A stretch of DNA of 64,000 nt from Bacteroidia bacterium (GCA_020049855.1 JAGVLJ010000027.1:7884-71883); one strand, 5' to 3'. Positions 7,345 through 49,918 are shown, numbered from the stretch's first letter. The notes: a model not told the origin generated them from the sequence alone. Program-made: numbers and translations.

Positions 7345-9234
7345 TTACTGCTTTTTTGTGTAATCTTGATAAAAATATTGAAGATAGGCCTGACCTATTT
7401 TCATTTTTGCCCTAGTGCTATCGGCTTTAGTTTTTGTATAAGGATAGGTAATTTGTTTTGATATATTGTCGAAAACTAATTGCTCTCCCTTGTAAACCCA
7501 TCCTATTCCATCATTAAAAGAGTAAAAAGCAAAGTCCTTACTGCTACTGTCGAGCAGGTTTTTACTCCACGCAAACGATGGAGTAGTAACAGGTATTTTT
7601 ACCTGATCAAGTATGGTTTTTGCTAGGTCGGTTTGATTCCCTGTTTTAGTACATACTTTTCCCCGGTAGTCGCTATCAAGTGCACCTCCGGTAAACAAAA
7701 CCGGAATTCTGAATTTACCCGGTACACTCAGGTCAGCGTAATTTTTGGGCAAGCGATGTCCGTGGTCGGCTACCATAACAATAAGGGTATTTTTATACCA
7801 TGCTTGCTGTTTTGCTTCAATTAAGAAATGATGAAGGCACTGGTCGCTGTACCAAATTGCATTTCGGAATAAATCGGTTTCTTTATCAGATTTAATTTTT
7901 GATGGAAACGGAATTTCAAACGGCTCATGGCTGCTAAGTGAAAGAATGGCATACACAAAAGGTCTTTTTTCGCTGTTTAAATCAGTTAATAAACGAGAAA
8001 AAACCACTCCGTCATGAGCGCCCCATTTCGAATTCATATCTTTATCTTCAAAGGCCTTTTTGTCAATTATTTTAGTAAATCCGCAATGGAAAAGATACGC
8101 TTTCATATTTGCAAAATTTGATTCACCTCCATAATAAAAGGATGTTTGGTATCCTGTATTAAGGAATGGAACGATTACGGATGGAAGTTTTTCCATTTTT
8201 TCGGCTTGGGTGATAATGGAGGTTTGTGTTTGTGCGGGGTAGGCACTTAAAATGGCTACTAATCCTTTGTCGGTTCTGTCGCCATTGGCATAAATATTTG
8301 AAAATAACAACCCCTCTTCAGATGCTTTTTTAAAACCGTCAGTTAGCCCCGCTTCTCCTCCCAAATATTCAATCACATCTGCTGTCCAGCTTTCTAATAT
8401 AATAAAAAGAATATTCGGGGTACTTGTTCCAAGAATGGAAGGGAAGGTATTGGTGCTTTTATATAATTCTTCAACAATATACTTTGCTTCTTCAGGTTTA
8501 AGATATTGATACGGATTACGTGTGCTGGTTTTTCCTGCATTCACATAGCTGTTCATCAGGTTCCAGCCAGTGTTTAGTGCGGTATGATTTAGAATGGGCT
8601 TACCGGAAAAAAAAACAGCACTTTGATTGATGGGCACTACTCCTAAGCCACCCCTTATTCCGGTAAAAATAAGAAAAAGGGTAGTCAAAAAAACGGCTGC
8701 GGCTTTTAAATGACTTTTTACTCCGGTAATTACATTATTCTTTAGCGGATAATCGTGCAAATGAACTGTTTTGCGCAACAAGATTCCAAACACAGTAATC
8801 ATAGTGATTATAATTGACAGAATCAGAAGGTAAGAAATACTATTCATTGAGGCTATTACTTCCTTTGGATATCGGGTAAATGAAACCGCGTAGGCGTTTA
8901 GCTTATATCCCCATTCATGATACAAGGCGGTATCGGTTAGATTTATGACAGACAACAGCGCAAGCATAACATAGTTATATGCCGAAAGGGCTTTAGTTAT
9001 ATGTAATAAATGAATATAGTTACTGGCTAAGGTAATTAAAAACGGAACAGCGAGCAGGTAGCAAGCTGCAGAAAAATCAAGCGGCCATGCGTGAAAAAAT
9101 GCGTAAAAAATTTCACTTTTGCTGCATGATGTAAATTTATCGTGGTTATATAAAACAAAAATTACTCTGTTTACCTGAAAAAAAAACTGCCAGAAAACAA
9201 ACAGACGGAGGAGGTACAACAATTTCCGTTTCAT
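7345..9234 (-). CDS. LTA synthase (LtaS)/phosphoglycerol-transferase family sulfatase-domain membrane protein
   Basis: 629 aa. Multi-TM N-terminal region followed by an alkaline-phosphatase-superfamily domain (ILFIILESWTAD, MVADHGHRLP). Confidence 0.8.
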   Translation of the reverse strand: MKRKLLYLLRLFVFWQFFFQVNRVIFVLYNHDKFTSCSKSEIFYAFFHAWPLDFSAACYLLAVPFLITLASNYIHLLHITKALSAYNYVMLALLSVINLTDTALYHEWGYKLNAYAVSFTRYPKEVIASMNSISYLLILSIIITMITVFGILLRKTVHLHDYPLKNNVITGVKSHLKAAAVFLTTLFLIFTGIRGGLGVVPINQSAVFFSGKPILNHTALNTGWNLMNSYVNAGKTSTRNPYQYLKPEEAKYIVEELYKSTNTFPSILGTSTPNILFIILESWTADVIEYLGGEAGLTDGFKKASEEGLLFSNIYANGDRTDKGLVAILSAYPAQTQTSIITQAEKMEKLPSVIVPFLNTGYQTSFYYGGESNFANMKAYLFHCGFTKIIDKKAFEDKDMNSKWGAHDGVVFSRLLTDLNSEKRPFVYAILSLSSHEPFEIPFPSKIKSDKETDLFRNAIWYSDQCLHHFLIEAKQQAWYKNTLIVMVADHGHRLPKNYADLSVPGKFRIPVLFTGGALDSDYRGKVCTKTGNQTDLAKTILDQVKIPVTTPSFAWSKNLLDSSSKDFAFYSFNDGIGWVYKGEQLVFDNISKQITYPYTKTKADSTRAKMKIGQAYLQYFYQDYTKKQ

Positions 9235-31257: not shown

Positions 31258-34200
31258 ATGCGCCTGCTTAAAATAGCTTCCTTACTCACAGTCTTTTTCT
31301 GCTCACCACTTGTATATGCTTCCCATATTTTGGGCGGAAGTATGAGTTATACCTACGTATCGGAAAATGCCTCAACCCAAACTTATAAAGTACGTTTGGT
31401 GCTGTACAGAGATAAATCATCAGCTACGCAATTTGATAATCCGATCACCATTGGCGTTCATAAAAATGATGCATCAAAGGCTTACGTATCCGATTATCAG
31501 GTAAACTGGATTTCTAAAAAGGATGTTACTCCTCCATCGGGCGGAAGTGGTTGTTCATTCACACCCAATATTGGAATTGAGCAGGCTATATATGAAGTAA
31601 ACATTACTGTTCCTAAACCATCGACAACCGGTTATATCGTAACCTGGGTAAGATGTTGCCGTACCAGCGGTCAGGTAAATATTGCCGATTTAATGGGGGC
31701 TACCTACTCCACCTTTATTCCAAATAGCACATATAGGAATAATTCTCCATCGTTCGTGGGAATTCCTGCACCTTATATTTGTGCAAATGATTTGGCTCAG
31801 GTAGCCAATGCGGCAACTGATACTGACGGAGATAGTTTGGTGTACTCCATAGTGCGTCCTTACACCGGTGCTAGTTCAGGAAGCCCTGATCCATACAACA
31901 GCATTGGAGTACCTCCCACTTTAAGTTATCCTTTTAATGGAGTCACTTATAATACGGGTTTTAATGCAGCACAACCTTTTGGTGTTACAGGCGTAGCAAA
32001 TATTAATGCAGCAACTGGCCTTTGTGATTTTAAAGCACCATCGGCAGGAAATTATTCGGTAGCCATTGAAGTGAAAGAGTATAGAAACGGAGTTTATTTG
32101 GGAGCTGTAAGACGAGATGTGATTTTACTTGTTCTTAATTGCCCGCCAAATCCACCGGCTAATCTTTCAGGAGCCAACGGAAGCGGTAATACTAACCCAA
32201 CCGTAATTGCTGGAGAAACTACCTGCTTTCCCATTACATTTACCGATAATCAGGATAGTGTTTATATTACCAGTTTCGGGGATATACTTGACGGAACAGG
32301 AGGTTATACCGGACCGAAAGCAATTTTACGGGATACAGCAGGATTTTTAACAGCAACTTCTCAGTTTTGCTGGACACCTGCCTGTAGTTCCGTACGTGCA
32401 GCTCCATATATTATCACCGTTCAGGCACGGGATAATGGCTGTCCGCCAAAAGTTTCAACCATCAATTATAGTGTTAAGGTGGATCCCTTTGTAGGTGCTA
32501 ATTCTATAACGGGAAATAAATTTATTTGTGCCCCCATTAACAATGAACCTTATGCCATTACCCCAAGAGTAGGCTCAACTTATTTTTGGATCGTTACCGG
32601 AGGAACTATTGCATCGGGGCAAAATACCTCTGCCATACGAGTCAACTGGCCTTCCACATCAACTATCGGCACTGTAACAGTTGTAGAAACAAATGCAAAA
32701 GGTTGTGTTGGAATTAATAATACCATCACCGTTACCGTAGAGGCAAAACCACTTGCCAAAACCATGAGTGGCGATATTATTCCCTGCACCGGTGATGTGG
32801 GAAGCACTTATTCCATTCCTTCTGGCCCCAACGGAACTATTTATTTTTGGGGTATTACCGGAGGGGTCATTACAGCCGGTAATAATACGGCACAAGTGAA
32901 TGTAAATTGGGGCAGTTCGGGAACAGGTCAACTTTATGTGGTAGAAAAAAGTGCTGCAGGATGTATTGGCGATACCACCTATTTAAGCATTACCATACGA
33001 CCAAAGCCGATTACCAATGCAGGCTTAGATTTAAAATCATGCGATCCAGGTGCTCCGGTACAGTTGAATGCTTCGGGTGCTGTTATTTATACATGGAATG
33101 CCGACCCTACCTTATCGTCTGCTACCCTGCCAAATCCTTTTGCAAGTCCTGTTGTTACTACCAAGTATATTGTAGCAGGCTCTTTGGTAATCGGAGGATG
33201 TATTACCTACGATACAGTGGTAGTAAATGTGTATTCAAGGCCTTTGCCCGTGAGCATAACAGGCGATCAGCAGCCATGCGAAAAAACAAATGGAGTAAAT
33301 TATAAAGTTACTCCTGTTGTGGGCTCTACTTATAAATGGTTTGTTGAAGGCGGAGTTATTTCCGGAACTACTATCGGCTCCACCGTAATTGTGAATTGGG
33401 GAGGCAAGGGTAACGGGCGGGTGATGTTGATTGAAACAAACTCGGCAGGTTGTGCAGGGGATACTGTTTTTTATCCGATAACTATCCGCGAGGTACCAGT
33501 GGTGGATGCCGGTATTGATACCGTAATTTGCGAGGGGCAATCGGTGCAAATGGAAGCCTCAGGCGCGGTTATTTTCAGGTGGAACACCTCATTGGCATTA
33601 AGTGACTCAAATATTGCAAATCCTATAAGCAGTCCGTTAAAAAGTATTCGGTATTATGTAACCGGACTACTTGTATCGGGAGGATGTCCGGCTTCTGATT
33701 CAGTTGACATAACAGTGTTGAACAGACCCTTGCTGAATATAGGCGAAGGAGACACGATTTGCGAAGGAACAACGGTTGAATTAAAGGTATTGGTAGGAAC
33801 CAACTTTAGATGGAATACCGGAGATACTGCCAAAAGTATTTTTGTTACTCCGGCCATCACGTCCAATTATTGGGTACTGGTACAAAATCAAAAATGTATT
33901 TTCGATACGTTGAAGGCTTTCGTGGTGGTTTATCCAAAACCTCGCGCACTTTTTACCCCATCTGATACAAGCAAAATTGAACCGCTCACCGTTATTTTTA
34001 CAAACATGTCAACGGGAGCGACAAAATACAATTGGACATTTGGAGATGGGATAGGTAAGTCAACGGATTTTAGCCCTACTTACACCTACGAGTTTCCCGG
34101 TAAGTATATTGTGAAGCTTATCGTTGAGAATACACTGGGATGTAAAGATTCGCTTATTTTCGATAATATTCACGTAATTGAGCAATTATACTACATCCGT

Positions 34201-34458
34201 ATTCCTAACGTGTTTACTCCTGATGGCGATGGAATCAATGATTTCTTTCAACCTGATTATTGGGGGTACATATCAATAAAGGGAGAGATATACAACCGCT
34301 GGGGGCAAAGGGTATATGATTGGAAAGGTGATGATTGGTGGGATGGAAATTCAAAATTGAACGAAGCTGCATCTGGTGAATACTATTATTTTATTTATTG
34401 CGAAGGGCGAAGGGGAAGAAAAGATATGTTTAAAGGAAGTGTTACACTTATCAGGTAA
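31258..34458 (+). CDS. large secreted adhesin-like protein with repeated Ig/PKD-like modules and a gliding-motility-associated (T9SS type B) C-terminal domain
   Basis: 1066 aa. Signal peptide, internal repeats, a PKD domain (NWTFGDGIGKS...GKYIVKLIVEN) and C-terminal IPNVFTPDGDGINDFF...GEYYYFIY, the type-B sorting-domain signature. Confidence 0.85.
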   Translation: MRLLKIASLLTVFFCSPLVYASHILGGSMSYTYVSENASTQTYKVRLVLYRDKSSATQFDNPITIGVHKNDASKAYVSDYQVNWISKKDVTPPSGGSGCSFTPNIGIEQAIYEVNITVPKPSTTGYIVTWVRCCRTSGQVNIADLMGATYSTFIPNSTYRNNSPSFVGIPAPYICANDLAQVANAATDTDGDSLVYSIVRPYTGASSGSPDPYNSIGVPPTLSYPFNGVTYNTGFNAAQPFGVTGVANINAATGLCDFKAPSAGNYSVAIEVKEYRNGVYLGAVRRDVILLVLNCPPNPPANLSGANGSGNTNPTVIAGETTCFPITFTDNQDSVYITSFGDILDGTGGYTGPKAILRDTAGFLTATSQFCWTPACSSVRAAPYIITVQARDNGCPPKVSTINYSVKVDPFVGANSITGNKFICAPINNEPYAITPRVGSTYFWIVTGGTIASGQNTSAIRVNWPSTSTIGTVTVVETNAKGCVGINNTITVTVEAKPLAKTMSGDIIPCTGDVGSTYSIPSGPNGTIYFWGITGGVITAGNNTAQVNVNWGSSGTGQLYVVEKSAAGCIGDTTYLSITIRPKPITNAGLDLKSCDPGAPVQLNASGAVIYTWNADPTLSSATLPNPFASPVVTTKYIVAGSLVIGGCITYDTVVVNVYSRPLPVSITGDQQPCEKTNGVNYKVTPVVGSTYKWFVEGGVISGTTIGSTVIVNWGGKGNGRVMLIETNSAGCAGDTVFYPITIREVPVVDAGIDTVICEGQSVQMEASGAVIFRWNTSLALSDSNIANPISSPLKSIRYYVTGLLVSGGCPASDSVDITVLNRPLLNIGEGDTICEGTTVELKVLVGTNFRWNTGDTAKSIFVTPAITSNYWVLVQNQKCIFDTLKAFVVVYPKPRALFTPSDTSKIEPLTVIFTNMSTGATKYNWTFGDGIGKSTDFSPTYTYEFPGKYIVKLIVENTLGCKDSLIFDNIHVIEQLYYIRIPNVFTPDGDGINDFFQPDYWGYISIKGEIYNRWGQRVYDWKGDDWWDGNSKLNEAASGEYYYFIYCEGRRGRKDMFKGSVTLIR
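32506..33942 (+). repeat. intragenic protein-level tandem modules (two alternating repeat types, three copies each)
   Basis: Type 1 (about 80 aa) at 32506-32751, 32764-33009 and 33256-33498 shares ITG..PC....Y...P..GSTY.W.v.GG.I......v.VNW.....G.v.v.E.n..GC.G. Type 2 (about 70 aa) copies each begin AG.D..iCeG and end v.v...P. Confidence 0.6.
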
Positions 34459-39667: not shown

Positions 39668-40042
39668 ATGAAAATACTTAAAATACTATTGATTGCAGCT
39701 TGCTTTTCAGCGTTCAGTTCCTGTTATTACGATAAAGAAGAAGAATTGTATCCTAATTCTTTTGGGCGATGCGATACCACTAATTCAACTTATTCGGTAC
39801 GTGTCAGGAAAATACTTGATGCCAACTGTATGGGAAGTGCATGCCATGATGGAGCAACACCTTCGGGGTGGGATCTATCTACCTATGCCGGAGTATCGGC
39901 AGCAACTGTACGAGGTAATCTTACCGGTGCAATTAATCAGGTATCTGGCTTTTCAGCTATGCCTAAAAACAGACCAAAACTATCTGATTGTGACATCGCA
40001 ATTATTCAAAATTGGGTGAGCAACGGAGCCAAAAACAATTAA
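39668..40042 (+). CDS. lipoprotein with a Cx4CH motif (cytochrome-c-like domain candidate)
   Basis: 124 aa with lipobox AFSSC. Motif CMGSACH at 39827-39847 is followed by WDLSTYAGV. Confidence 0.6.
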   Translation: MKILKILLIAACFSAFSSCYYDKEEELYPNSFGRCDTTNSTYSVRVRKILDANCMGSACHDGATPSGWDLSTYAGVSAATVRGNLTGAINQVSGFSAMPKNRPKLSDCDIAIIQNWVSNGAKNN

Positions 40043-40050
40043 ACTTTGCA

Positions 40051-40938
40051 ATGAACATGCAGAAAATTATAACCATCCTTACTCTCGCTTTTTCCTTGCC
40101 TGTAATGGCGCAGGAAGATATGTTGGCCGAATTAGAGCAAAATAAAGCGAAGGAAGAACCCAAACTTGTGTATGCTACTTTCAAGTCTACCAGATTGGTT
40201 AGTGGCCATACTACTGAGCTTATTGCTAAAAAGCATCTTGACTTTCGAATTGCTCATCGTTTTGGCAATTTAAATTCTGGAGTTGAGGAGTTTTTTGGAT
40301 TAGATAGAGCTACCTTACGTCTTGGATTTGAATATGGGATCAACAATCATCTGATGGTGGCAGTTGGTCGTTCTACCGTAAATAAGACAATTGACAGCTA
40401 TATAAAATATAAAATACTTTCTCAGAAAGAAGGAGGGATGCCCATAACGCTTACTTATTTTGGTAGTGTAGCTGCCAAAACTGCAAAATGGACGGATCCT
40501 ACCCGAAACAATTACCTTACTTCACAGTTAAGTTATATCAATCAGTTACTTTTTGCCCGTAAAATAAACGACTTATTGTCGGTTCAACTAATGCCTACTC
40601 ATATTCATAAAAATTTGGTTACTTATACGAAAGATCCAAATGATATTTTTGCCCTCGGAGTTGGCGGAAGTATTAAAATTACTCGAAGTACACGCTTTAA
40701 TGTTGAGTACTACCCCTTGCTTAATGGAAATAGCGAAAATGTGTATGGTAATGTTTTTGCGTTCGGATTTGATATTGAAACCGGAGGACACGTTTTTCAG
40801 GTACATTTTACCAACAGCATTGGGCTGATAGAACAACAGTTTATTGCCGAAACTACCGGAAAGTGGAGCAAGGGAGATATCAGGTACGGGTTTAATATTT
40901 CGCGTACCTTTTCGTTTGATAAACGGGGAAAGAAATAA
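40051..40938 (+). CDS. secreted beta-barrel-like protein, hypothetical
   Basis: First ATG lies after the upstream stop. Signal peptide ends VMAQ, and the rest is strand-rich with alternating hydrophobic residues. Third gene of a compact cluster. Confidence 0.6.
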   Translation: MNMQKIITILTLAFSLPVMAQEDMLAELEQNKAKEEPKLVYATFKSTRLVSGHTTELIAKKHLDFRIAHRFGNLNSGVEEFFGLDRATLRLGFEYGINNHLMVAVGRSTVNKTIDSYIKYKILSQKEGGMPITLTYFGSVAAKTAKWTDPTRNNYLTSQLSYINQLLFARKINDLLSVQLMPTHIHKNLVTYTKDPNDIFALGVGGSIKITRSTRFNVEYYPLLNGNSENVYGNVFAFGFDIETGGHVFQVHFTNSIGLIEQQFIAETTGKWSKGDIRYGFNISRTFSFDKRGKK

Positions 40939-43517: not shown

Positions 43518-43535
43518 CCTTAAGGGCATAAAAAA

Positions 43536-43562
43536 ACTCCCGACTACAAATCGGGAGTTTTT
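43536..43562. terminator. bidirectional intrinsic terminator
   Basis: A-run, then an 8-bp stem actcccga/tcgggagt, then a T-run. Lies between convergent genes. Confidence 0.7.
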
Positions 43563-43576
43563 GGGTGAGGTAAGAT

Positions 43577-44623
43577 TTATTTACCCATTTGCATATCTGA
43601 GTAGTGTTTATAGTATGCTTTTTCGATATCAGTTGGTTTGATGTTTTCTTTATTGCGGCTGTATTTTAAGCGGTGAGAGAAGAACTGATCGGCAATATCA
43701 TCACCGGTTGATTGAAGCAATACGATATCGGGTTCAATGTACTTAGCGCGTTCGTCCCATAACGTTACATAATCGTCAATTGAGTAGCCCCAGTTGGCGG
43801 CATTCACAATTTCTTTATCAGGGAAAATGGCCTGAATTTTAGCAGTACCGGTTTTATCATTATCCAGAAAAGGGAAAAAGAATCCTGAGTCGCCAATTAG
43901 CAATACGCGTTGTTTTTTCTTTGGAAATGTTAAGTCGTAATCCATGCGTAATCCCTGACTGTTTGTTTTAATTCGATAAGGAAGATTTTTTCCTCCATCA
44001 CGTATTTCGTCAAGGTTTGGTTCAAAATCACCGAATAGGGTCGGACGACCTTGGTCAGGAAAAGTTTGGGTGCTTTTGCTGGTGGTATATTGTTTAATCA
44101 CCTTAGCCATAGCATTAGCAACTAACTCGGCTCCTTTTTCACGCAGGTGTCCGTCAATCGGCATGTAGGTGATGTCCTGTGGCTTGTATGGCATAAAAAT
44201 TTCGGAGAAATCAAGGAAAATTACGTTGTTGGCTGCACACAATTCTTTGATATATTTTTTACCCACCTTCTGAACTTTGGTTTCCGAATCCCCAATTTCG
44301 GTGGTGAGCCAACAAAATACTACCTGAATATTGGACGATCGCAAGTTTTTTACAAAATTTTCAAAATACATTTTGTACCGCTCTTTAATTACCTGAAGGG
44401 TGGCGCGTGCAAGTGAGTCGTTGTCATCATAAATTTCATCTCGTGGAATTAACTCATAATTCATAGTTGATTCTTCGGTAGCATTGCTTGCCGACATATC
44501 AACCTTTTCACTGCTTACGGTTTCACTGATAACACTGTTTGAATCTTTGCTTTTGTACCAGAAAAAGTAAAGAAGCCCCCCGACTATTGCCAGAGCAAAT
44601 ACAATACGTAGTAATAGTTTCAT
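43577..44623 (-). CDS. membrane-anchored SGNH-like acyltransferase/esterase with permuted motif order (AlgX/AlgJ-like rather than DltD-like)
   Basis: 348 aa with one N-terminal TM helix. A block-V-like PIDGHLREKGAELVA (D157/H159) precedes a block-I-like RVLLIGDSGFF (S246). Last gene of the operon, 12 nt after the MBOAT gene. Confidence 0.65.
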   Translation of the reverse strand: MKLLLRIVFALAIVGGLLYFFWYKSKDSNSVISETVSSEKVDMSASNATEESTMNYELIPRDEIYDDNDSLARATLQVIKERYKMYFENFVKNLRSSNIQVVFCWLTTEIGDSETKVQKVGKKYIKELCAANNVIFLDFSEIFMPYKPQDITYMPIDGHLREKGAELVANAMAKVIKQYTTSKSTQTFPDQGRPTLFGDFEPNLDEIRDGGKNLPYRIKTNSQGLRMDYDLTFPKKKQRVLLIGDSGFFFPFLDNDKTGTAKIQAIFPDKEIVNAANWGYSIDDYVTLWDERAKYIEPDIVLLQSTGDDIADQFFSHRLKYSRNKENIKPTDIEKAYYKHYSDMQMGK

Positions 44624-44635
44624 TTGATATAAATT

Positions 44636-46162
44636 TTAGAATTGAAAGTAAAGGAATTCATTTTGATTGTTCAAATTATCTGACGAAAAAATAACCACTA
44701 TGATAGTGGCATAGGCTGTCCAACGAATCATGTAGTTAGTATTTTGCAAATCAAGCCCATAGTCTTTTTTACGCTGTATCCATTCTATAAGAAAAAGTAC
44801 TCCTCCCCACATCAATCCATCTTTCACTGCAGAGAAATACGGCATAGTGAACAAAGATTCGCTGCATATACGCGACCAAAGGGCTTGAAATTTGGTAATG
44901 CTACCCGAACGAAATACCAATTGTGATGCCGCCCAAAATAGCCAAACTAAAATAGCACTAACTACCGAATAAACTACATGAGGAATTATCTGAGACCATT
45001 TTTTTCTTACTTCTTTCGTAAGCACTTCATAGCCTAAAACAATTCCATGCATCAATCCCCAAATAACTGCGGTCCATTGGGCACCATGCCACAAGCCGCT
45101 TAATGTAAAACTGATAATGGCAGCATAAACAATTCCCCATTTTCCCCAGCTTCGTTTACCGAATGAAATGGGCATATATAAATAATCTGTAATCCAGGAA
45201 CTGAGTGAAATGTGCCACCTTCGCCAAAACTCGGTTAAAGAAGTAGCAAAATAGGGGAAGTTAAAATTTTTCAGAAGGTCGAAGCCTAATAGTCGGGCGC
45301 AGCCAAGCGCAATATCCGAGTACCCCGAAAAGTCGCAATAAATCTGAATCGTAAATGCAAGTGTGGCTAAAATAATATTGCTACCGCTGGAAGCATCGCT
45401 AGCATATACGTAGGTTACAAATTTTCCGATAGAATCGGCTACAACGGTTTTTTTGAAAAATCCCCAAAGCATTTGGCTTAGTCCGCTTTCCATTTTATTC
45501 CAACTAAAGCTACGTGGGTTGGTAAATTGGGGAAGCAGGTGGCCGGCCCGTTCAATGGGTCCTGCCACCAACTGTGGGAAAAAAGCTACATGTGTAATAA
45601 AATCCACGTAATCATCTGCCGGTTCATAGGTTTCCTGATATACATCAAAGGTGTACCCAAGCACATGGAAAGTGAAAAAACTTATTGCAAGCGGAAGTAA
45701 AATATGTTCGGGCGAAAAGAGGATTTGCCAGCCCAAAGTATTGGCTGCATCTACAAATGACTGAACAAAAAAGTTGAAATATTTAAAATAACACAGCACG
45801 CCCAAATGCACTACTGCACTTAAAACCATGAGCCATTTGCGTGTGATTTCTTTTTTTTGTTTTCCAAGCGCTATGCCCATAAGGTAGGCAAAAGATGAAC
45901 TGAGCCAAAGCAAAAGGAATAATTGCAGAATATGGTAATGCCGCTCGTTGAAACCTTTTGCCACATTTAACCATGCTTCTTCAAACCTGAAGTTAAAAAG
46001 TAGTTTGGCAATTTTGTTTTGGGGCATCGCAGCAGCACAATAAAAAAAGTAGCTGCCGAAAAGCAACACTATATTTTGTGCTTTTCTGGATTTTAGAAGC
46101 GACCAATATAGCAGGTAAATTACTGTAAGGAAAAGAAAAAAGGAGAACGAGGTAAAAAGCAT
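44636..46162 (-). CDS. MBOAT family O-acyltransferase (DltB/AlgI-like)
   Basis: 508 aa, polytopic. FWRRWHISLSSWITDYLY and the invariant-His context LSGLWHGAQW. Confidence 0.9.
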   Translation of the reverse strand: MLFTSFSFFLFLTVIYLLYWSLLKSRKAQNIVLLFGSYFFYCAAAMPQNKIAKLLFNFRFEEAWLNVAKGFNERHYHILQLFLLLWLSSSFAYLMGIALGKQKKEITRKWLMVLSAVVHLGVLCYFKYFNFFVQSFVDAANTLGWQILFSPEHILLPLAISFFTFHVLGYTFDVYQETYEPADDYVDFITHVAFFPQLVAGPIERAGHLLPQFTNPRSFSWNKMESGLSQMLWGFFKKTVVADSIGKFVTYVYASDASSGSNIILATLAFTIQIYCDFSGYSDIALGCARLLGFDLLKNFNFPYFATSLTEFWRRWHISLSSWITDYLYMPISFGKRSWGKWGIVYAAIISFTLSGLWHGAQWTAVIWGLMHGIVLGYEVLTKEVRKKWSQIIPHVVYSVVSAILVWLFWAASQLVFRSGSITKFQALWSRICSESLFTMPYFSAVKDGLMWGGVLFLIEWIQRKKDYGLDLQNTNYMIRWTAYATIIVVIFSSDNLNNQNEFLYFQF

Positions 46163-46178
46163 GGTTTAACAAAAAAGT

Positions 46179-46424
46179 TCAGGCCGGAAGTTTTTTTAGT
46201 ATGCAGGCACACAAGTCGCCTATGTTGTTGAATTTAATTACTTCGTTAAGTTTAAATTTTATTTTATAGTGATTTTCAACCGCATCAATCAGCATTACAT
46301 GGGTGAGCGAATCCCAACCATCTACATCAGCCGCGGTGGTTGCAGGGGTTAAATGGAGCTGCTCTTTTTTCAAAACGGTTTTGAAAATTTCGGTTACATG
46401 GGTTAAAACTTCTTCTGGTGTCAT
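46179..46424 (-). CDS. acyl/aminoacyl carrier protein (DltC-like)
   Basis: 81 aa with the phosphopantetheine attachment motif DVDGWDSLTHV. Confidence 0.85.
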   Translation of the reverse strand: MTPEEVLTHVTEIFKTVLKKEQLHLTPATTAADVDGWDSLTHVMLIDAVENHYKIKFKLNEVIKFNNIGDLCACILKKLPA

Positions 46425-46428
46425 TTGG

Positions 46429-47085
46429 TTAGATTATTTTTTCCATGAGCAATTTACTGTTTCCGGGCAATAAATTGCTCACGTTTGGGTTATTTGCTTT
46501 TTTTTTAATTGCAATATGAAAGCCTGCTTTTTCGTAGGCACTCACTGCCGAATCATTATTGGCCATTAAAATAATCTGAGCCTTATTAATATCCGGCCTA
46601 CGTTTTTTGTGTACCGCAATATGCTCTGCAATCAGCTTTTTGCTCAGCCCCAACCCTCTGAATTCTTTTTTGGTGTAAATACATTCTAACTGAATCGCGC
46701 CTTCTTCTCTTGGTATAGATACTTCATCCAGTAACATAATGGATTCAGATGCCGCAATAAATTTTTCTTTTCCTATAAAATACATGAGGGTATTCGCCTT
46801 AAGCATATTACTTTGACCTACCTCGCCCTCTACCCAAGAGCATATTGCTGAGGCATTTTTCCCCTCAACTTTGGCAATCAAAAATCCGGATAGGCATAAT
46901 TCCTGCCCGGTAATGTCTTCATCTAATATATTATTAAGGGTGCCGATAAATTCTTTTTCCGAAAGGTTAAATATGGCACTATAACTCAGTAAAGAGGTTC
47001 CGCTTTTTTCGGCCTCAAGAATACTCTCAATAATAAACTCTTTATCAGTTGCGGTGGCTTGTTGAATTGTAATTTGAGGGTTCAT
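46429..47085 (-). CDS. GNAT family N-acetyltransferase
   Basis: 218 aa with acetyl-CoA-binding motif A (RGLGLSKKLI) and AYEKAGF near the C-terminus. Confidence 0.8.
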   Translation of the reverse strand: MNPQITIQQATATDKEFIIESILEAEKSGTSLLSYSAIFNLSEKEFIGTLNNILDEDITGQELCLSGFLIAKVEGKNASAICSWVEGEVGQSNMLKANTLMYFIGKEKFIAASESIMLLDEVSIPREEGAIQLECIYTKKEFRGLGLSKKLIAEHIAVHKKRRPDINKAQIILMANNDSAVSAYEKAGFHIAIKKKANNPNVSNLLPGNSKLLMEKII

Positions 47086-47087
47086 TT

Positions 47088-48560
47088 TTATAATTGTGCA
47101 CTCAGTGCTTTGCGGTCGGTTTTTCCATTGGCATTTAACGGAAAACTATTAACCCGATGAATAAATTGCGGAATCATGTATGCGGGTAAACTGGTTTTTA
47201 ATAAATCCAGAAGTTGCTCATCGGTTGTTCCGGTGGGTTCAGTGAAAAGGTGCAATTCATCAATCTTTTTATCATTTGTTTTAACAATTGCTACTGTATT
47301 TACACCTTGCAAACATTTTTTTGCATAAAATTCAATTTCGCTCAGTTCAACCCTAAAGCCTTGTAGTTTTACCTGATGATCCGATCTGCCGCAATACGAA
47401 AAATCGCCATCGAGATCTCTGAAACAGATATCACCTGTTTTGTAAAAACGTATCCCGTCTTTTTCAAAAAAGGCTTCTTTATTCTTTTCAGAATTGTTTA
47501 AGTACCCCTTGGTAAGTTGTGAGCCAGAGATACAAAGTTCTCCTTTTTCTCCATCTGCCATTTCATTTTGATTTTCATCAATGATTATGCATTGGGTTGA
47601 TATCATTTCATGACCTATACACACCATGTCGTTGTAAGCCTTTACTTTGTTGTTAGCAATATGATAGGCGGTGCAAAAAATGGTTGCTTCAGTTGGCCCA
47701 TATACATTCCATATTTGTGCATTTGGAATGCACTTTTGCCATTGTGTTACGGTAGATTGAAGAAGTGCTTCTCCACAAAAAAGAGAATATCGCATGGCGG
47801 GGAGGTTAATTTCTTCAAAATATGGTTGTAGCAATTGAATCATGGATGGTACCATGAGCGCAAAAGTGATATTTTGATCTTCGAGTGTGGTGTAGATGTT
47901 AAGGTATTTTACTCCGGTATTAGGTAACGTATAAACCGAAGCCCCAACGCATAATGGAGCAAGGTATGACATCACGGATAAGTCGAAAGTGAGATCGAAC
48001 ATTTGCAAAAATTTATCGCTTGGCTTTAAATCATTGAAAATTTCAAAAAATGCGTATAAAAAGGCATCTATATTTTCGTAGGTAATTGGAACACCTTTGG
48101 GAACTCCTGTGGTTCCTGAGGTGAATAGTATGTAGGCTTCTGTTTGATCATTGGTGTCCGTTTTAAATTCATAGTCGGCATCGGCTTTAAATTCAGGCTG
48201 TACTATGGTAACTAAATTGAAAGCACCTTCTTCGGCCTGGTTTTTATTTCCCAGCACTGTTTTTAATCCGGCCTGGATGATAATTTGTATATTTTTATTT
48301 TCTGGGTGACCCGGATGTATGGGTACGTACGTTTTGCCACTAAGCAATATAGCTAAAACAGATGCATACGTTTCAATGGAGTTATCCAGTAAAACTCCGA
48401 TGCGTTGCTCATTAGAGGTTTGTTCAGCTAAGTAAATTCCTGTCGATCGAACCGCTTGTTGAAGCGTGGCATAAGAATAACTTTTGTCATTAATTACAAA
48501 AGCAGTTTCTCCTTTTTGGTTATTTAACGAATGGATAAGACGGTGAAGGAACGGAACCAT
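47088..48560 (-). CDS. DltA-like amino-acid adenylating enzyme (carrier-protein ligase)
   Basis: 490 aa. Motifs: A3 LFTSGTTGVPKGV, A4 FDLSV (DltA-like, with the Asp typical of amino-acid-activating A domains), A5 NVYGPTEAT, A7 YKTGD, A8 GRSDHQVKLQGFRVEL and A10 NGKTDRKAL. Confidence 0.9.
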   Translation of the reverse strand: MVPFLHRLIHSLNNQKGETAFVINDKSYSYATLQQAVRSTGIYLAEQTSNEQRIGVLLDNSIETYASVLAILLSGKTYVPIHPGHPENKNIQIIIQAGLKTVLGNKNQAEEGAFNLVTIVQPEFKADADYEFKTDTNDQTEAYILFTSGTTGVPKGVPITYENIDAFLYAFFEIFNDLKPSDKFLQMFDLTFDLSVMSYLAPLCVGASVYTLPNTGVKYLNIYTTLEDQNITFALMVPSMIQLLQPYFEEINLPAMRYSLFCGEALLQSTVTQWQKCIPNAQIWNVYGPTEATIFCTAYHIANNKVKAYNDMVCIGHEMISTQCIIIDENQNEMADGEKGELCISGSQLTKGYLNNSEKNKEAFFEKDGIRFYKTGDICFRDLDGDFSYCGRSDHQVKLQGFRVELSEIEFYAKKCLQGVNTVAIVKTNDKKIDELHLFTEPTGTTDEQLLDLLKTSLPAYMIPQFIHRVNSFPLNANGKTDRKALSAQL

Positions 48561-48691
48561 GTTGTATTAGGTATGTTTGGGTGCAATATACTTTACCAAA
48601 ACACTCCTGCAAAAAAAAATAACGAAAATTCCGGCTAAAGCAATAAACTTAATAAAGTAATCAGTTTGGAAGTGACTATTTTGCAGCCTGA

Positions 48692-49918
48692 ATGTTGTGC
48701 ACTGTTTTTCAAAACAAAGAATATCGTTTTTTCTTAAGCGCCCGAGTGCTGCTTACGTTCGCCTTACAAATACAAAATGTTGTGGTAAGCTGGCAGATAT
48801 TTAAACTTACCAATGACCCCTTGTCATTAGGATTAATTGGGTTGGCCGAGGCCATTCCTGCCTTATCTATTGCTTTATATGCAGGTCATTTGGCCGATAA
48901 ACATAATAAACGGACTATTCTTATCGTGGCACTTGGAGTATTATTGAGTAGTTCCGTTGGCATATTATGGGTGACACTTCCTCGCGGGCAGGAAAGTTTT
49001 AGTGTATTAACGCAGGTCAGGTATTTGTATTTGTTTATTTTGGTAAGCGGATTTGCACGCGGGTTTTACGCGCCCACGGCTTTTTCTTTTTTGCATAATC
49101 TGGTAAAGCGCGAACACCTTACTGTTGCCTCTACCATCAACAGTTCCTCTTGGCAAATGGCTTCTATCATTGGGCCGGCAATAGGCGGTTATTTATATTT
49201 GGAGGCAGGTATTACCATTGTTATCACAAGTGTAGTTATTTTTTCTTTGGCAGCATTGGGTTGTTTGTTTTCAATACGATCGAAACCAGTTAAATATATG
49301 GAAACAGGCGAGAGCATTAGCTTCAGGCTTTCCGAGGGTATCCGTTTTGTGTTTCGAAATAAAGTAATATTAAGCGCTTTGTCGCTTGATTTATTTGCGG
49401 TGTTGTTTGGAGGTGCTGTGGCATTGCTGCCTGTTTTTGCGGATACCATTTTGCACGTGGGACCTGATGGATTAGGTTTGCTGCGCGCAGCCCCTTCACT
49501 CGGTGCAAGTATGCTTATGCTATGGCTCTCGTTGCGCAAACCACAGGGAAAACCGGGTGCTCTATTGCTTTGGTGTGTAGCAGGATTTGGGTTGTGCATG
49601 ATTGCTTTTGCTGTGTCAACCAATTTTTATCTTTCCCTGTTTTTTCTCTTTTTGAGCGGAGCTTTTGACAGTGTAAGTGTTGTGGTACGAGGCAATATTT
49701 TGCAGTTACAAACACCCGACCATATGCGCGGGCGGGTGTCGGCAGTAAATACCATGTTTATTGGTTCAAGTAATGAAATAGGTGCCTTTGAGAGTGGCGT
49801 TGCCGCACGGTTAATGGGAATCGTGCCCTCGGTCATCTTTGGTGGATGTATAACCTTGTTGGTTGTGGGATTTACTGCTGTAAAATCAAAAGCACTAAAA
49901 AAGTTCAAGTATGAGTAA
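48692..49918 (+). CDS. MFS transporter (EntS/enterobactin-exporter-like subfamily)
   Basis: 408 aa with 12 TM helices. Transcribed divergently from the adenylase operon. Confidence 0.85.
   Translation: MLCTVFQNKEYRFFLSARVLLTFALQIQNVVVSWQIFKLTNDPLSLGLIGLAEAIPALSIALYAGHLADKHNKRTILIVALGVLLSSSVGILWVTLPRGQESFSVLTQVRYLYLFILVSGFARGFYAPTAFSFLHNLVKREHLTVASTINSSSWQMASIIGPAIGGYLYLEAGITIVITSVVIFSLAALGCLFSIRSKPVKYMETGESISFRLSEGIRFVFRNKVILSALSLDLFAVLFGGAVALLPVFADTILHVGPDGLGLLRAAPSLGASMLMLWLSLRKPQGKPGALLLWCVAGFGLCMIAFAVSTNFYLSLFFLFLSGAFDSVSVVVRGNILQLQTPDHMRGRVSAVNTMFIGSSNEIGAFESGVAARLMGIVPSVIFGGCITLLVVGFTAVKSKALKKFKYE

Follow-up and report, generated by a model that had tools for sequence, protein, structure and literature searches.

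In the Dlt system of Firmicutes (DltX-DltA-DltB-DltC-DltD), a self-contained operon encodes a stand-alone amino-acid adenylase that loads a small carrier protein (CP), an MBOAT protein that draws the acyl group from the CP, a tyrosine shuttle with the motif FxYxxF, and a terminal transferase of the SGNH type with a transmembrane (TM) anchor. The AlgI-AlgJ-AlgF-AlgX system, and likewise PatA/PatB and WssH/WssI, pairs an MBOAT whose extra C-terminal helices end in FxYxxF with a type-II-anchored, circularly permuted SGNH-like partner bearing a DxH...S triad, and uses acetyl-CoA without a CP (PMC12148441). In Vibrio cholerae, AlmE-AlmF-AlmG adds glycine to lipid A, a Gram-negative case in which a DltA-like adenylase and a CP aminoacylate an envelope component. 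A unified mechanism holds that in MBOAT/SGNH pathways the acyl group passes to the Tyr of the FxYxxF peptide, the ‘acyl shuttle’, and then to the Ser of the SGNH protein (PMC12148441). The shuttle is borne in Dlt by a separate microprotein, DltX, whereas in PatA, AlgI and other acetyl-CoA MBOATs it is fused C-terminally, on a pair of extra helices; it has been shown experimentally for PatA, in which Tyr445 is the acetylated residue, and for DltX (PMC12148441). Pathways of this kind other than Dlt are said to be without a CP; in that work a CP donor counts as peculiar to Dlt, and fusion of the shuttle as characteristic of systems that use acetyl-CoA (PMC12148441). Here we describe an operon that joins the two, at positions 43577 to 48560 of a 64,000-nucleotide stretch of DNA from a Bacteroidia bacterium (GCA_020049855.1, JAGVLJ010000027.1:7884-71883; hereafter the window). 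Measured by the features that define Dlt, Alg and Alm, it belongs to none of the three, yet its mode of action is almost certainly a combination of theirs, and it is probably a self-contained operon for CP-dependent acylation of the cell envelope.

The operon consists of five genes, listed here in the order of transcription:

47088..48560, minus strand: adenylase, DltA-like, stand-alone, 490 aa (AMP-binding, TIGR01733)
46429..47085, minus strand: GNAT acetyltransferase, single-domain, 218 aa (Pfam Acetyltransf_1/7/10)
46179..46424, minus strand: phosphopantetheine CP, 81 aa (PP-binding, Ser in GWDSL)
44636..46162, minus strand: MBOAT, 508 aa (Pfam MBOAT, His317 and His359, C-terminal FLYFQF)
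43577..44623, minus strand: AlgJ-like SGNH-like protein, N-terminal TM anchor, 348 aa (Foldseek match to AlgJ 4o8v, permuted motifs)

A first-pass annotation of this DNA had described these five minus-strand genes with gaps of 2, 4, 16 and 12 nt, and recomputation of the open reading frames (ORFs) recovered the same genes and coordinates. It had read the locus as a Dlt-like loading module combined with an Alg-type outer module and an additional GNAT, and had known of no characterised system of identical architecture. Domain, motif and fold data support the former, and we met no such system in the literature searched, the coverage of which is incomplete: that literature described no CP-dependent MBOAT with a fused shuttle, no adenylase-GNAT-CP-MBOAT cassette and no link between FkbH and MBOAT proteins.

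The likenesses to Dlt are those set out above, from the adenylase-loaded CP to the tyrosine shuttle and the anchored terminal enzyme. Unlike Dlt, however, the window operon carries its shuttle on the MBOAT's C-terminus rather than on a DltX microprotein, ends in an AlgJ-like permuted protein rather than DltD, adds a GNAT, and belongs to a diderm without known teichoic acid; the cutoffs of the Dlt equivalog models are all missed. With Alg-type systems it has in common both the MBOAT architecture and the permuted SGNH-like partner, but its MBOAT would be fed by an adenylase, a GNAT and a CP, and it contains neither AlgX, AlgF nor alginate genes. Nor does it lie within a polysaccharide locus: in the flanks scanned (eight further genes around the operon, at about 36.1–55.1 kb) a cognate locus (alg8/44/K/E/G/X/L/F, wss or bcs) is absent, and the window holds no homologue of a GT2 synthase. 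The resemblance to Alm ends with the adenylase and CP, since AlmG is a cytoplasmic-face acyltransferase of the LpxL type and Alm is without MBOAT, SGNH protein or GNAT; among the five operon products and the eight nearby genes, nothing matched a lipid A acyltransferase (AlmG/LpxL-like).

The MBOAT is where the two traditions meet. The protein matches Pfam MBOAT (67 bits against a cutoff of 27), the motifs WRRWH317 and WH359G are as first read, and the DltB structures 8jem and 6bug match it at 8e-24 with both His motifs aligned. The first-pass annotation had placed it with DltB and AlgI together; the shared His motifs bear this out, but the protein is not of the DltB type. It fails the DltB equivalog TIGR04091 (147.8 bits against a cutoff of 375) and runs 149 residues past His359 to the terminus ...NEFLYFQF, a fused shuttle as in AlgI and PatA. 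The FLYFQF peptide occupies residues 503–508 (Tyr505; codons 44639–44656), and an FxYxxF terminus is kept in nearly all of the related MBOATs checked, as F[IL]YFQF or variants such as FIYFKF. A six-frame scan of the operon found no DltX-like small ORF with a terminal FxYxxF, its matches being the MBOAT's own C-terminus and a 35-codon out-of-frame stretch within the MBOAT gene that is not credible. The window MBOAT thus has the AlgI/PatA architecture, and yet its gene lies directly downstream of a CP gene.

The fifth protein, which had been called a permuted, TM-anchored SGNH protein of the Alg type, proved to be so on three counts: a fold match to AlgJ, a DxH motif that precedes the Ser, and a single N-terminal TM segment. 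Its Pfam matches are weak (ALGX, residues 128–246; the C-terminal half of Lipase_GDSL_2, residues 68–166), and because the C-terminal half of the lipase domain precedes GDS246, the SGNH domain must be permuted. Neither Pfam nor NCBIfam returned a DltD match. Its AlphaFold2 (AF2) model (pLDDT 91.4; N-terminal helix at residues 2–25) was compared by Foldseek with the PDB, where the only matches at E ≤ 0.001 were chains A and B of Pseudomonas putida AlgJ (4o8v; E 1e-6, probability 1.0, TM-score 0.51). AlgJ is itself a circularly permuted SGNH-like enzyme with the triad D190-x-H192...S288 (PMC4148444). In an alignment of 48 homologues, P155, D157-G-H159, N221, G224, R226 and G244-D-S246 are conserved, with D157, H159 and S246 invariant or nearly so, and the same conserved positions are invariant in a 20-sequence subset; the catalytic triad is therefore likely to be D157-x-H159 together with S246 of the GDS motif. 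About 120 clusters of homologues exist, nearly all of them from Bacteroidota and all named ‘hypothetical’. By sequence, a search of the PDB with this protein returned only a coiled-coil match, which was rejected as chance.

The upstream genes supply the loading machinery. The 81-aa product with GWDSL is, as had been proposed, a carrier protein (PP-binding at 29.7 bits, cutoff 20.8), to which NCBIfam gave only sub-threshold acyl carrier protein models and no DltC model. The adenylase matches AMP-binding (7e-63) and AMP-binding_C in Pfam and contains every adenylation core motif attributed to it (TSGTTG, FDLS, YGPTE, GELCI, YKTGD, GRSDHQVK, LPAYMIP and NGKTDR). It passes the generic amino-acid adenylation model TIGR01733 (327.7 bits against 317.4), the only such model that it passes, and no DltA model. 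Its best PDB matches are the Gly-activating A domain of LgrA module 2, then DltA, then AlmE (4oxi, a strong match). Alignment places Asp193 at the position of PheA D235, the Asp that binds the alpha-amino group, and Lys480 at that of K517, and both are invariant in 33 of 33 family members. Thus the substrate should be an alpha-amino acid with a free amine, and with this Asp present and an amino-acid adenylation model passed, a fatty-acyl or aryl-acid ligase is not indicated.

Which amino acid this might be can be read in part from the ten-position Stachelhaus code. We extracted it by alignment after checking the DltA reference sequences against 3e7w, 3dhv, 7r27 and 7vhv; the PheA fragment used for numbering returned DAWTIAAICK, its textbook code, in support of the register. 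The code of the window adenylase is DLMLLCVIFK and that of Bacillus cereus DltA DLMTLCTVAK, identical at six of the ten positions including L236, M239, L299 and C301. The last of these is equivalent to B. cereus Cys269, which contributes to the selection of D-Ala by DltA. The DLM...LC core equals that of DltA, and the other positions are bulkier hydrophobics, a profile like that of the Gly-activating LgrA module 2, from which a very small side chain is predicted. A small amino acid is therefore the expected substrate, with D-Ala the first candidate and Gly the second. Related cassettes bear other codes (DVQ[VA]ITFIYK and DF[FV][AC]LCAVFK), so the cargo would vary between lineages.

The GNAT is the component without counterpart in any of the described systems. 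It scores above the Pfam cutoffs for Acetyltransf_1, _7 and _10, has an acetyl-CoA loop R143-G-x-G146, and yields an AF2 model (pLDDT 94.6) that Foldseek matches to RimI, PaiA, phosphinothricin acetyltransferase and dopamine N-acetyltransferase; the enzymes so matched by predicted fold acetylate primary amines, including the alpha-amines of amino acids. Sequence prediction found in it neither a TM segment nor a signal, which makes it cytoplasmic. Since a free alpha-amine is required by the adenylase, and cytoplasmic acetyl-CoA by the GNAT, the most economical and likely role of the latter would be N-acetylation of the aminoacyl-S-CP. LgrA offers an analogy, in that it N-formylates Val tethered to a peptidyl carrier protein.

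That this GNAT belongs to the system is apparent from its distribution. The family comprised 15 clusters at first look and 478 by profile search (E ≤ 1e-10), named at most ‘GNAT family N-acetyltransferase’ and drawn from metagenome-assembled genomes (MAGs) of Bacteroidales and other Bacteroidota, almost all uncultured. We sampled its genomic context by three GNAT look-ups, a scan of 58 metagenome loci and two NCBI MAGs, counting evaluable loci in each case. An adenylase gene lies directly upstream of the GNAT in 49 of 56 loci; the CP is the next gene after it in 34 of 51 and within 2.6 kb in 39 of 51; and an MBOAT occurs within 4.5 kb in 25 of 39. Adenylase-GNAT, CP and MBOAT genes thus recur together in other Bacteroidota loci, and in the two NCBI MAGs the cassettes stand alone, as dlt operons do. 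The conservation of the five-gene order with its GNAT, which the first-pass annotation had left to be surveyed, holds in part: the order is widespread in Bacteroidota, but the fifth gene is usually of another kind. Among 18 loci with an MBOAT and a visible next gene, nine have an SGNH protein of canonical order, four an AlgJ-like protein (the window, L001, L002 and L060) and five something else. The usual fifth gene (‘c4’) encodes a TM-anchored protein of about 300–330 aa with the canonical order G-x-S...N...D-x-x-H, which Pfam and NCBIfam fail to recognise, giving faint DltD, OatA-C and TesA signals over block V only. The conserved unit is thus adenylase-GNAT, usually followed by a CP, an MBOAT and an SGNH-like protein of canonical order. 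At L056/L057:6514-12564 and at L070, an adenylase-GNAT pair with the same DLMLLCVIFK code is followed by HATPase_c, GH3 amido-synthetase-like and LysE exporter genes, and the loader module has thus been reused there in a different, perhaps small-molecule, context.

Approached from its other end, the operon has quite different relatives. A search of 185,579 species genomes anchored on the AlgJ-like protein returned 54 loci, in 45 of which an MBOAT adjoins the AlgJ-like gene. In this set only the window and the two relatives closest to it have the loader of adenylase, GNAT and CP. Thirteen loci instead carry, together with a CP, a loader protein of about 575 aa of the FkbH type (FkbH_N, HAD-IIIC and FkbH); they come from Pedobacter, Nubsella, Flavobacteriaceae, Schleiferiaceae and Bacteroidia MAGs (L004-L012, L014, L017, L019 and L043; e.g. 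L007:6587-10996), and their MBOATs end in FxYxxF. These loci constitute a second uncharacterised operon type, with an FkbH-like loader, CP, MBOAT and AlgJ-like SGNH protein, and by analogy with FkbH/OzmB they would modify a polymer outside the cytoplasm with an acyl group of the glyceryl type. About 28 further AlgJ-anchored loci have no CP and are presumably acetyl-CoA users.

The FkbH-type operons (Pedobacter, Nubsella and other Bacteroidota) are the closest relatives of the window's envelope half, with the most similar MBOAT (up to 65% identity) and AlgJ-like protein (up to 61%), the same CP-MBOAT-SGNH order and the same FxYxxF end; they differ in their FkbH-type loader, where the window has an adenylase and a GNAT, and some adjoin genes resembling an exopolysaccharide locus. 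In a neighbour-joining tree of 60 MBOATs, in which those associated with a CP fall into distinct clades, the window protein is sister to those of the FkbH-type loci L004/L005 (64–65% identity), inside the FkbH-plus-AlgJ clade, and lies well away from those of other adenylase-GNAT cassettes (33–38% identity in those compared). The adenylase, GNAT and CP are closest to cassettes of the L055 type (49%, 51% and 54%), the CP reaching only 39–47% identity with those of the FkbH type. These opposite affinities place a recombination junction between CP and MBOAT. The window operon is thus a rare module-swapped chimera, seen in four loci: a loader of adenylase, GNAT and CP, from one cassette that is widespread in Bacteroidota, has taken the place of another's FkbH-CP loader. 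Such a swap implies that the choice of acyl group lies with the loader and that of the target with the MBOAT/SGNH pair.

Several observations on these relatives deserve mention. At L076:6488-14354, L097 and L104:6457-11000 both loaders are joined (adenylase, GNAT, GNAT, FkbH, CP); as many as four GNAT paralogues are present, and the other strand carries a second CP-MBOAT. This suggests more complex, possibly two-component acyl groups. In L007 (11772-14368 and 4126-6590) and in L006, L008, L017, L026 and L027, GT2-like, HEAT-repeat and YaiO/TPR genes lie beside the MBOAT/AlgJ pair; the GT2 protein (483 aa) resembles a processive synthase, with weak similarity to chitin synthase, and two further unknown proteins recur alongside. 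The set looks like an undescribed synthase-dependent exopolysaccharide locus of Sphingobacteriia and Flavobacteriia, and its position next to some FkbH-type relatives hints that the AlgJ-like family may decorate such a polymer. In L047, L048 and L052-L054, which are distant relatives from outside Bacteroidota (MAGs of Deltaproteobacteria, Pirellulales and Patescibacteria), the partner of the AlgJ-like protein is not an MBOAT but a carbamoyltransferase of about 620 aa (Carbam_trans_N/C). Finally, L002, L027, L028 and L036 are labelled Bifidobacteriaceae, Bifidobacterium, Caulobacter or Brevundimonas in GTDB although the loci are clearly of Bacteroidota type, and are likely mis-binned or mislabelled MAG contigs.

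We propose the following route, the chemistry of which we infer at every step. In the cytoplasm the adenylase would activate a small, non-polar alpha-amino acid whose amine is free (D-Ala, or failing that Gly) and thioesterify the aminoacyl group to the phosphopantetheine arm of the 81-aa CP, where the GNAT would N-acetylate it from acetyl-CoA. The MBOAT would then pick the acyl group off the CP at the cytoplasmic face and move it through a His-lined funnel, loading it on Tyr505 of its own FLYFQF peptide on the periplasmic side. From there Ser246 of the AlgJ-like protein, with D157 and H159, could take the group and esterify a hydroxyl of a periplasmic acceptor, most likely a glycan. We consider this scheme on balance the best account of the locus. 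More tentatively, Bacteroidota may harbour a hitherto unrecognised, modular class of MBOAT/SGNH envelope-acylation systems with interchangeable CP loaders, in which adenylase and GNAT would supply N-acetyl-aminoacyl groups and FkbH those of the glyceryl type, and the window operon may be a natural loader swap by which a glycan of the periplasm or outer membrane is esterified with an N-acetyl-aminoacyl group (e.g. N-acetyl-D-alanyl); this seems to us possible, though short of probable.

A number of points weigh against this scheme. No glycan synthase, lipopolysaccharide or capsule genes flank the operon among the neighbours scanned, and the genes that accompany some FkbH-type relatives (the GT2 exopolysaccharide synthase, YaiO and HEAT-repeat proteins) have no counterpart in the window. 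As to the amino acid, the adenylase fails two DltA models, the equivalog TIGR01734 (301.2 bits, cutoff 559.85) and NF003417 (314.2 bits, cutoff 476), and its code agrees with that of DltA at just six of ten positions; with the DltA, DltB and DltC equivalog models all missed, D-Ala cannot be assumed. N-acetylation of the tethered aminoacyl group is just one possible role for the GNAT. Moreover, the adenylase-GNAT pairs of L056 and L070 are without CP or MBOAT, so the pair is not exclusively tied to envelope acylation.

The operon could instead be a plain Dlt orthologue, modelled on the Dlt of Firmicutes or the dra locus of Bordetella, that adds D-alanine with its amine free to an anionic polymer of the glycerol-phosphate or another type and so lowers negative surface charge, with the GNAT accessory or regulatory. 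DltA is indeed among the best matches of the adenylase and has the same DLM..LC code core, and the MBOAT keeps both His motifs of DltB. Also in favour is the one glycan-related gene in the rest of the window, which encodes a membrane transferase like LtaS/MdoB:

7345-9234, minus strand: LtaS/phosphoglycerol transferase/MdoB-like membrane protein, 629 aa (sulfatase-family domain, 56 bits against a cutoff of 970)

This protein could be a diderm glycerophosphotransferase. The match is weak, however, and the gene lies 35 kb from the operon. The failed equivalog models, the lack of any DltD or DltX and the AlgJ-like identity of the fifth protein all speak against orthology with Dlt, and the GNAT is conserved as tightly as the other parts, an argument for the cargo as its target. 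We regard a plain Dlt orthologue as unlikely.

We would give slightly less credence to a GNAT that acts on the adenylase itself, a regulator like AcuA or Pat that silences it by lysine acetylation at the A10 Lys480, with an unmodified amino acid as cargo. For AMP-forming enzymes, acetylation of the catalytic Lys by a GNAT is established (AcuA-AcsA, Pat-Acs), and the strict adjacency of adenylase and GNAT, even where CP or MBOAT is missing, would suit an enzyme-regulator pair. Yet the top 50 Foldseek matches include no protein-lysine acetyltransferase, being generic small-amine and N-alpha GNATs instead, and the 2-nt spacing, with probable translational coupling and roughly 1:1 expression, would be unusual for a regulator. 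Very improbable, finally, is that adenylase, GNAT and CP make a small, diffusible compound of the N-acetyl-aminoacyl kind, or else an acetyl starter in the manner of the GNAT loading domains of polyketide synthases, for export by, for example, the MFS protein encoded next to the operon, with the MBOAT/SGNH pair acting on something else by means of acetyl-CoA: the GH3 and LysE-type exporter genes beside adenylase-GNAT pairs that have no MBOAT would fit it, as would the divergently adjacent EntS-like MFS gene, but that gene is syntenic in the two closest relatives only, the CP-MBOAT adjacency is conserved over two different loader types, the CP-associated MBOATs form clades of their own, and the five genes are packed at gaps of 2–16 nt.

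The borders of the operon and other features of the window are as follows:

about 43530-43562, no strand: bidirectional intrinsic-terminator-like hairpin, read from sequence, between the convergent SGNH and ABM genes
48561..48691, no strand: divergent intergenic region, 131 nt, presumed promoter region, common to the operon and the EntS-like MFS gene
48692-49918, plus strand: EntS-like MFS (NF007792, 167 bits, below its cutoff)
31258-34458 and 40012-40938, plus strand: PKD-repeat protein with CHU_C, and DUF5777 beta-barrel, which fit a Bacteroidota origin

Direct reading confirms the bidirectional terminator, with an A-run, a 9-bp stem (AACTCCCGA / TCGGGAGTT), a 7-nt loop and a T-run; a simple terminator scan did not list this hairpin, though it is legible by eye. 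Of the divergent promoter region that the first-pass annotation had placed at the other border, the 131-nt divergent intergenic region is there, but the promoter is only presumed: a scan for sigma-70 sites gave no support, finding fewer than in shuffled sequence, with a consensus that is not that of Bacteroidota, which use other motifs. The EntS-like MFS is, as described, the divergent neighbour of the operon, but with synteny confined to the two nearest relatives (L001 and L002) we rejected it as a component of the system. The flanks encode CtaA, DinB, ABM, MFS, GSDH, a peroxiredoxin-like protein (so labelled by sequence resemblance alone), Fur and a K+ channel. Base composition in the operon region is unremarkable, and an Rfam scan of the window gave three tRNAs and nothing else. 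Of the two plus-strand products listed last, the PKD-repeat protein is 1066 aa long and bears a type IX secretion signal (CHU_C), and the DUF5777 protein is a membrane beta-barrel. The closest relatives of the operon are in Bacteroidia MAGs, with an SGNH protein 95% identical, and together with the CHU_C protein they support a Bacteroidota origin.

The window operon and its relatives join a CP donor to a fused shuttle, and thus donor type and shuttle architecture are separable. They show, too, that one cytoplasmic loader can be swapped for another while the translocase/transferase pair is otherwise conserved, and the system is compact, with five genes and three key residues (the Ser of GWDSL, Tyr505 and Ser246). 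If the chemistry proposed here is correct, N-acetyl-aminoacyl esters and the route to them would be new for any diderm, and the loader swap would offer a natural template for reprogramming the acyl group that is delivered across the inner membrane. The same chemistry, if true, would mean that an ecologically dominant diderm phylum bears new surface modifications, in the form of aminoacyl, N-acetyl-aminoacyl or glyceryl esters.

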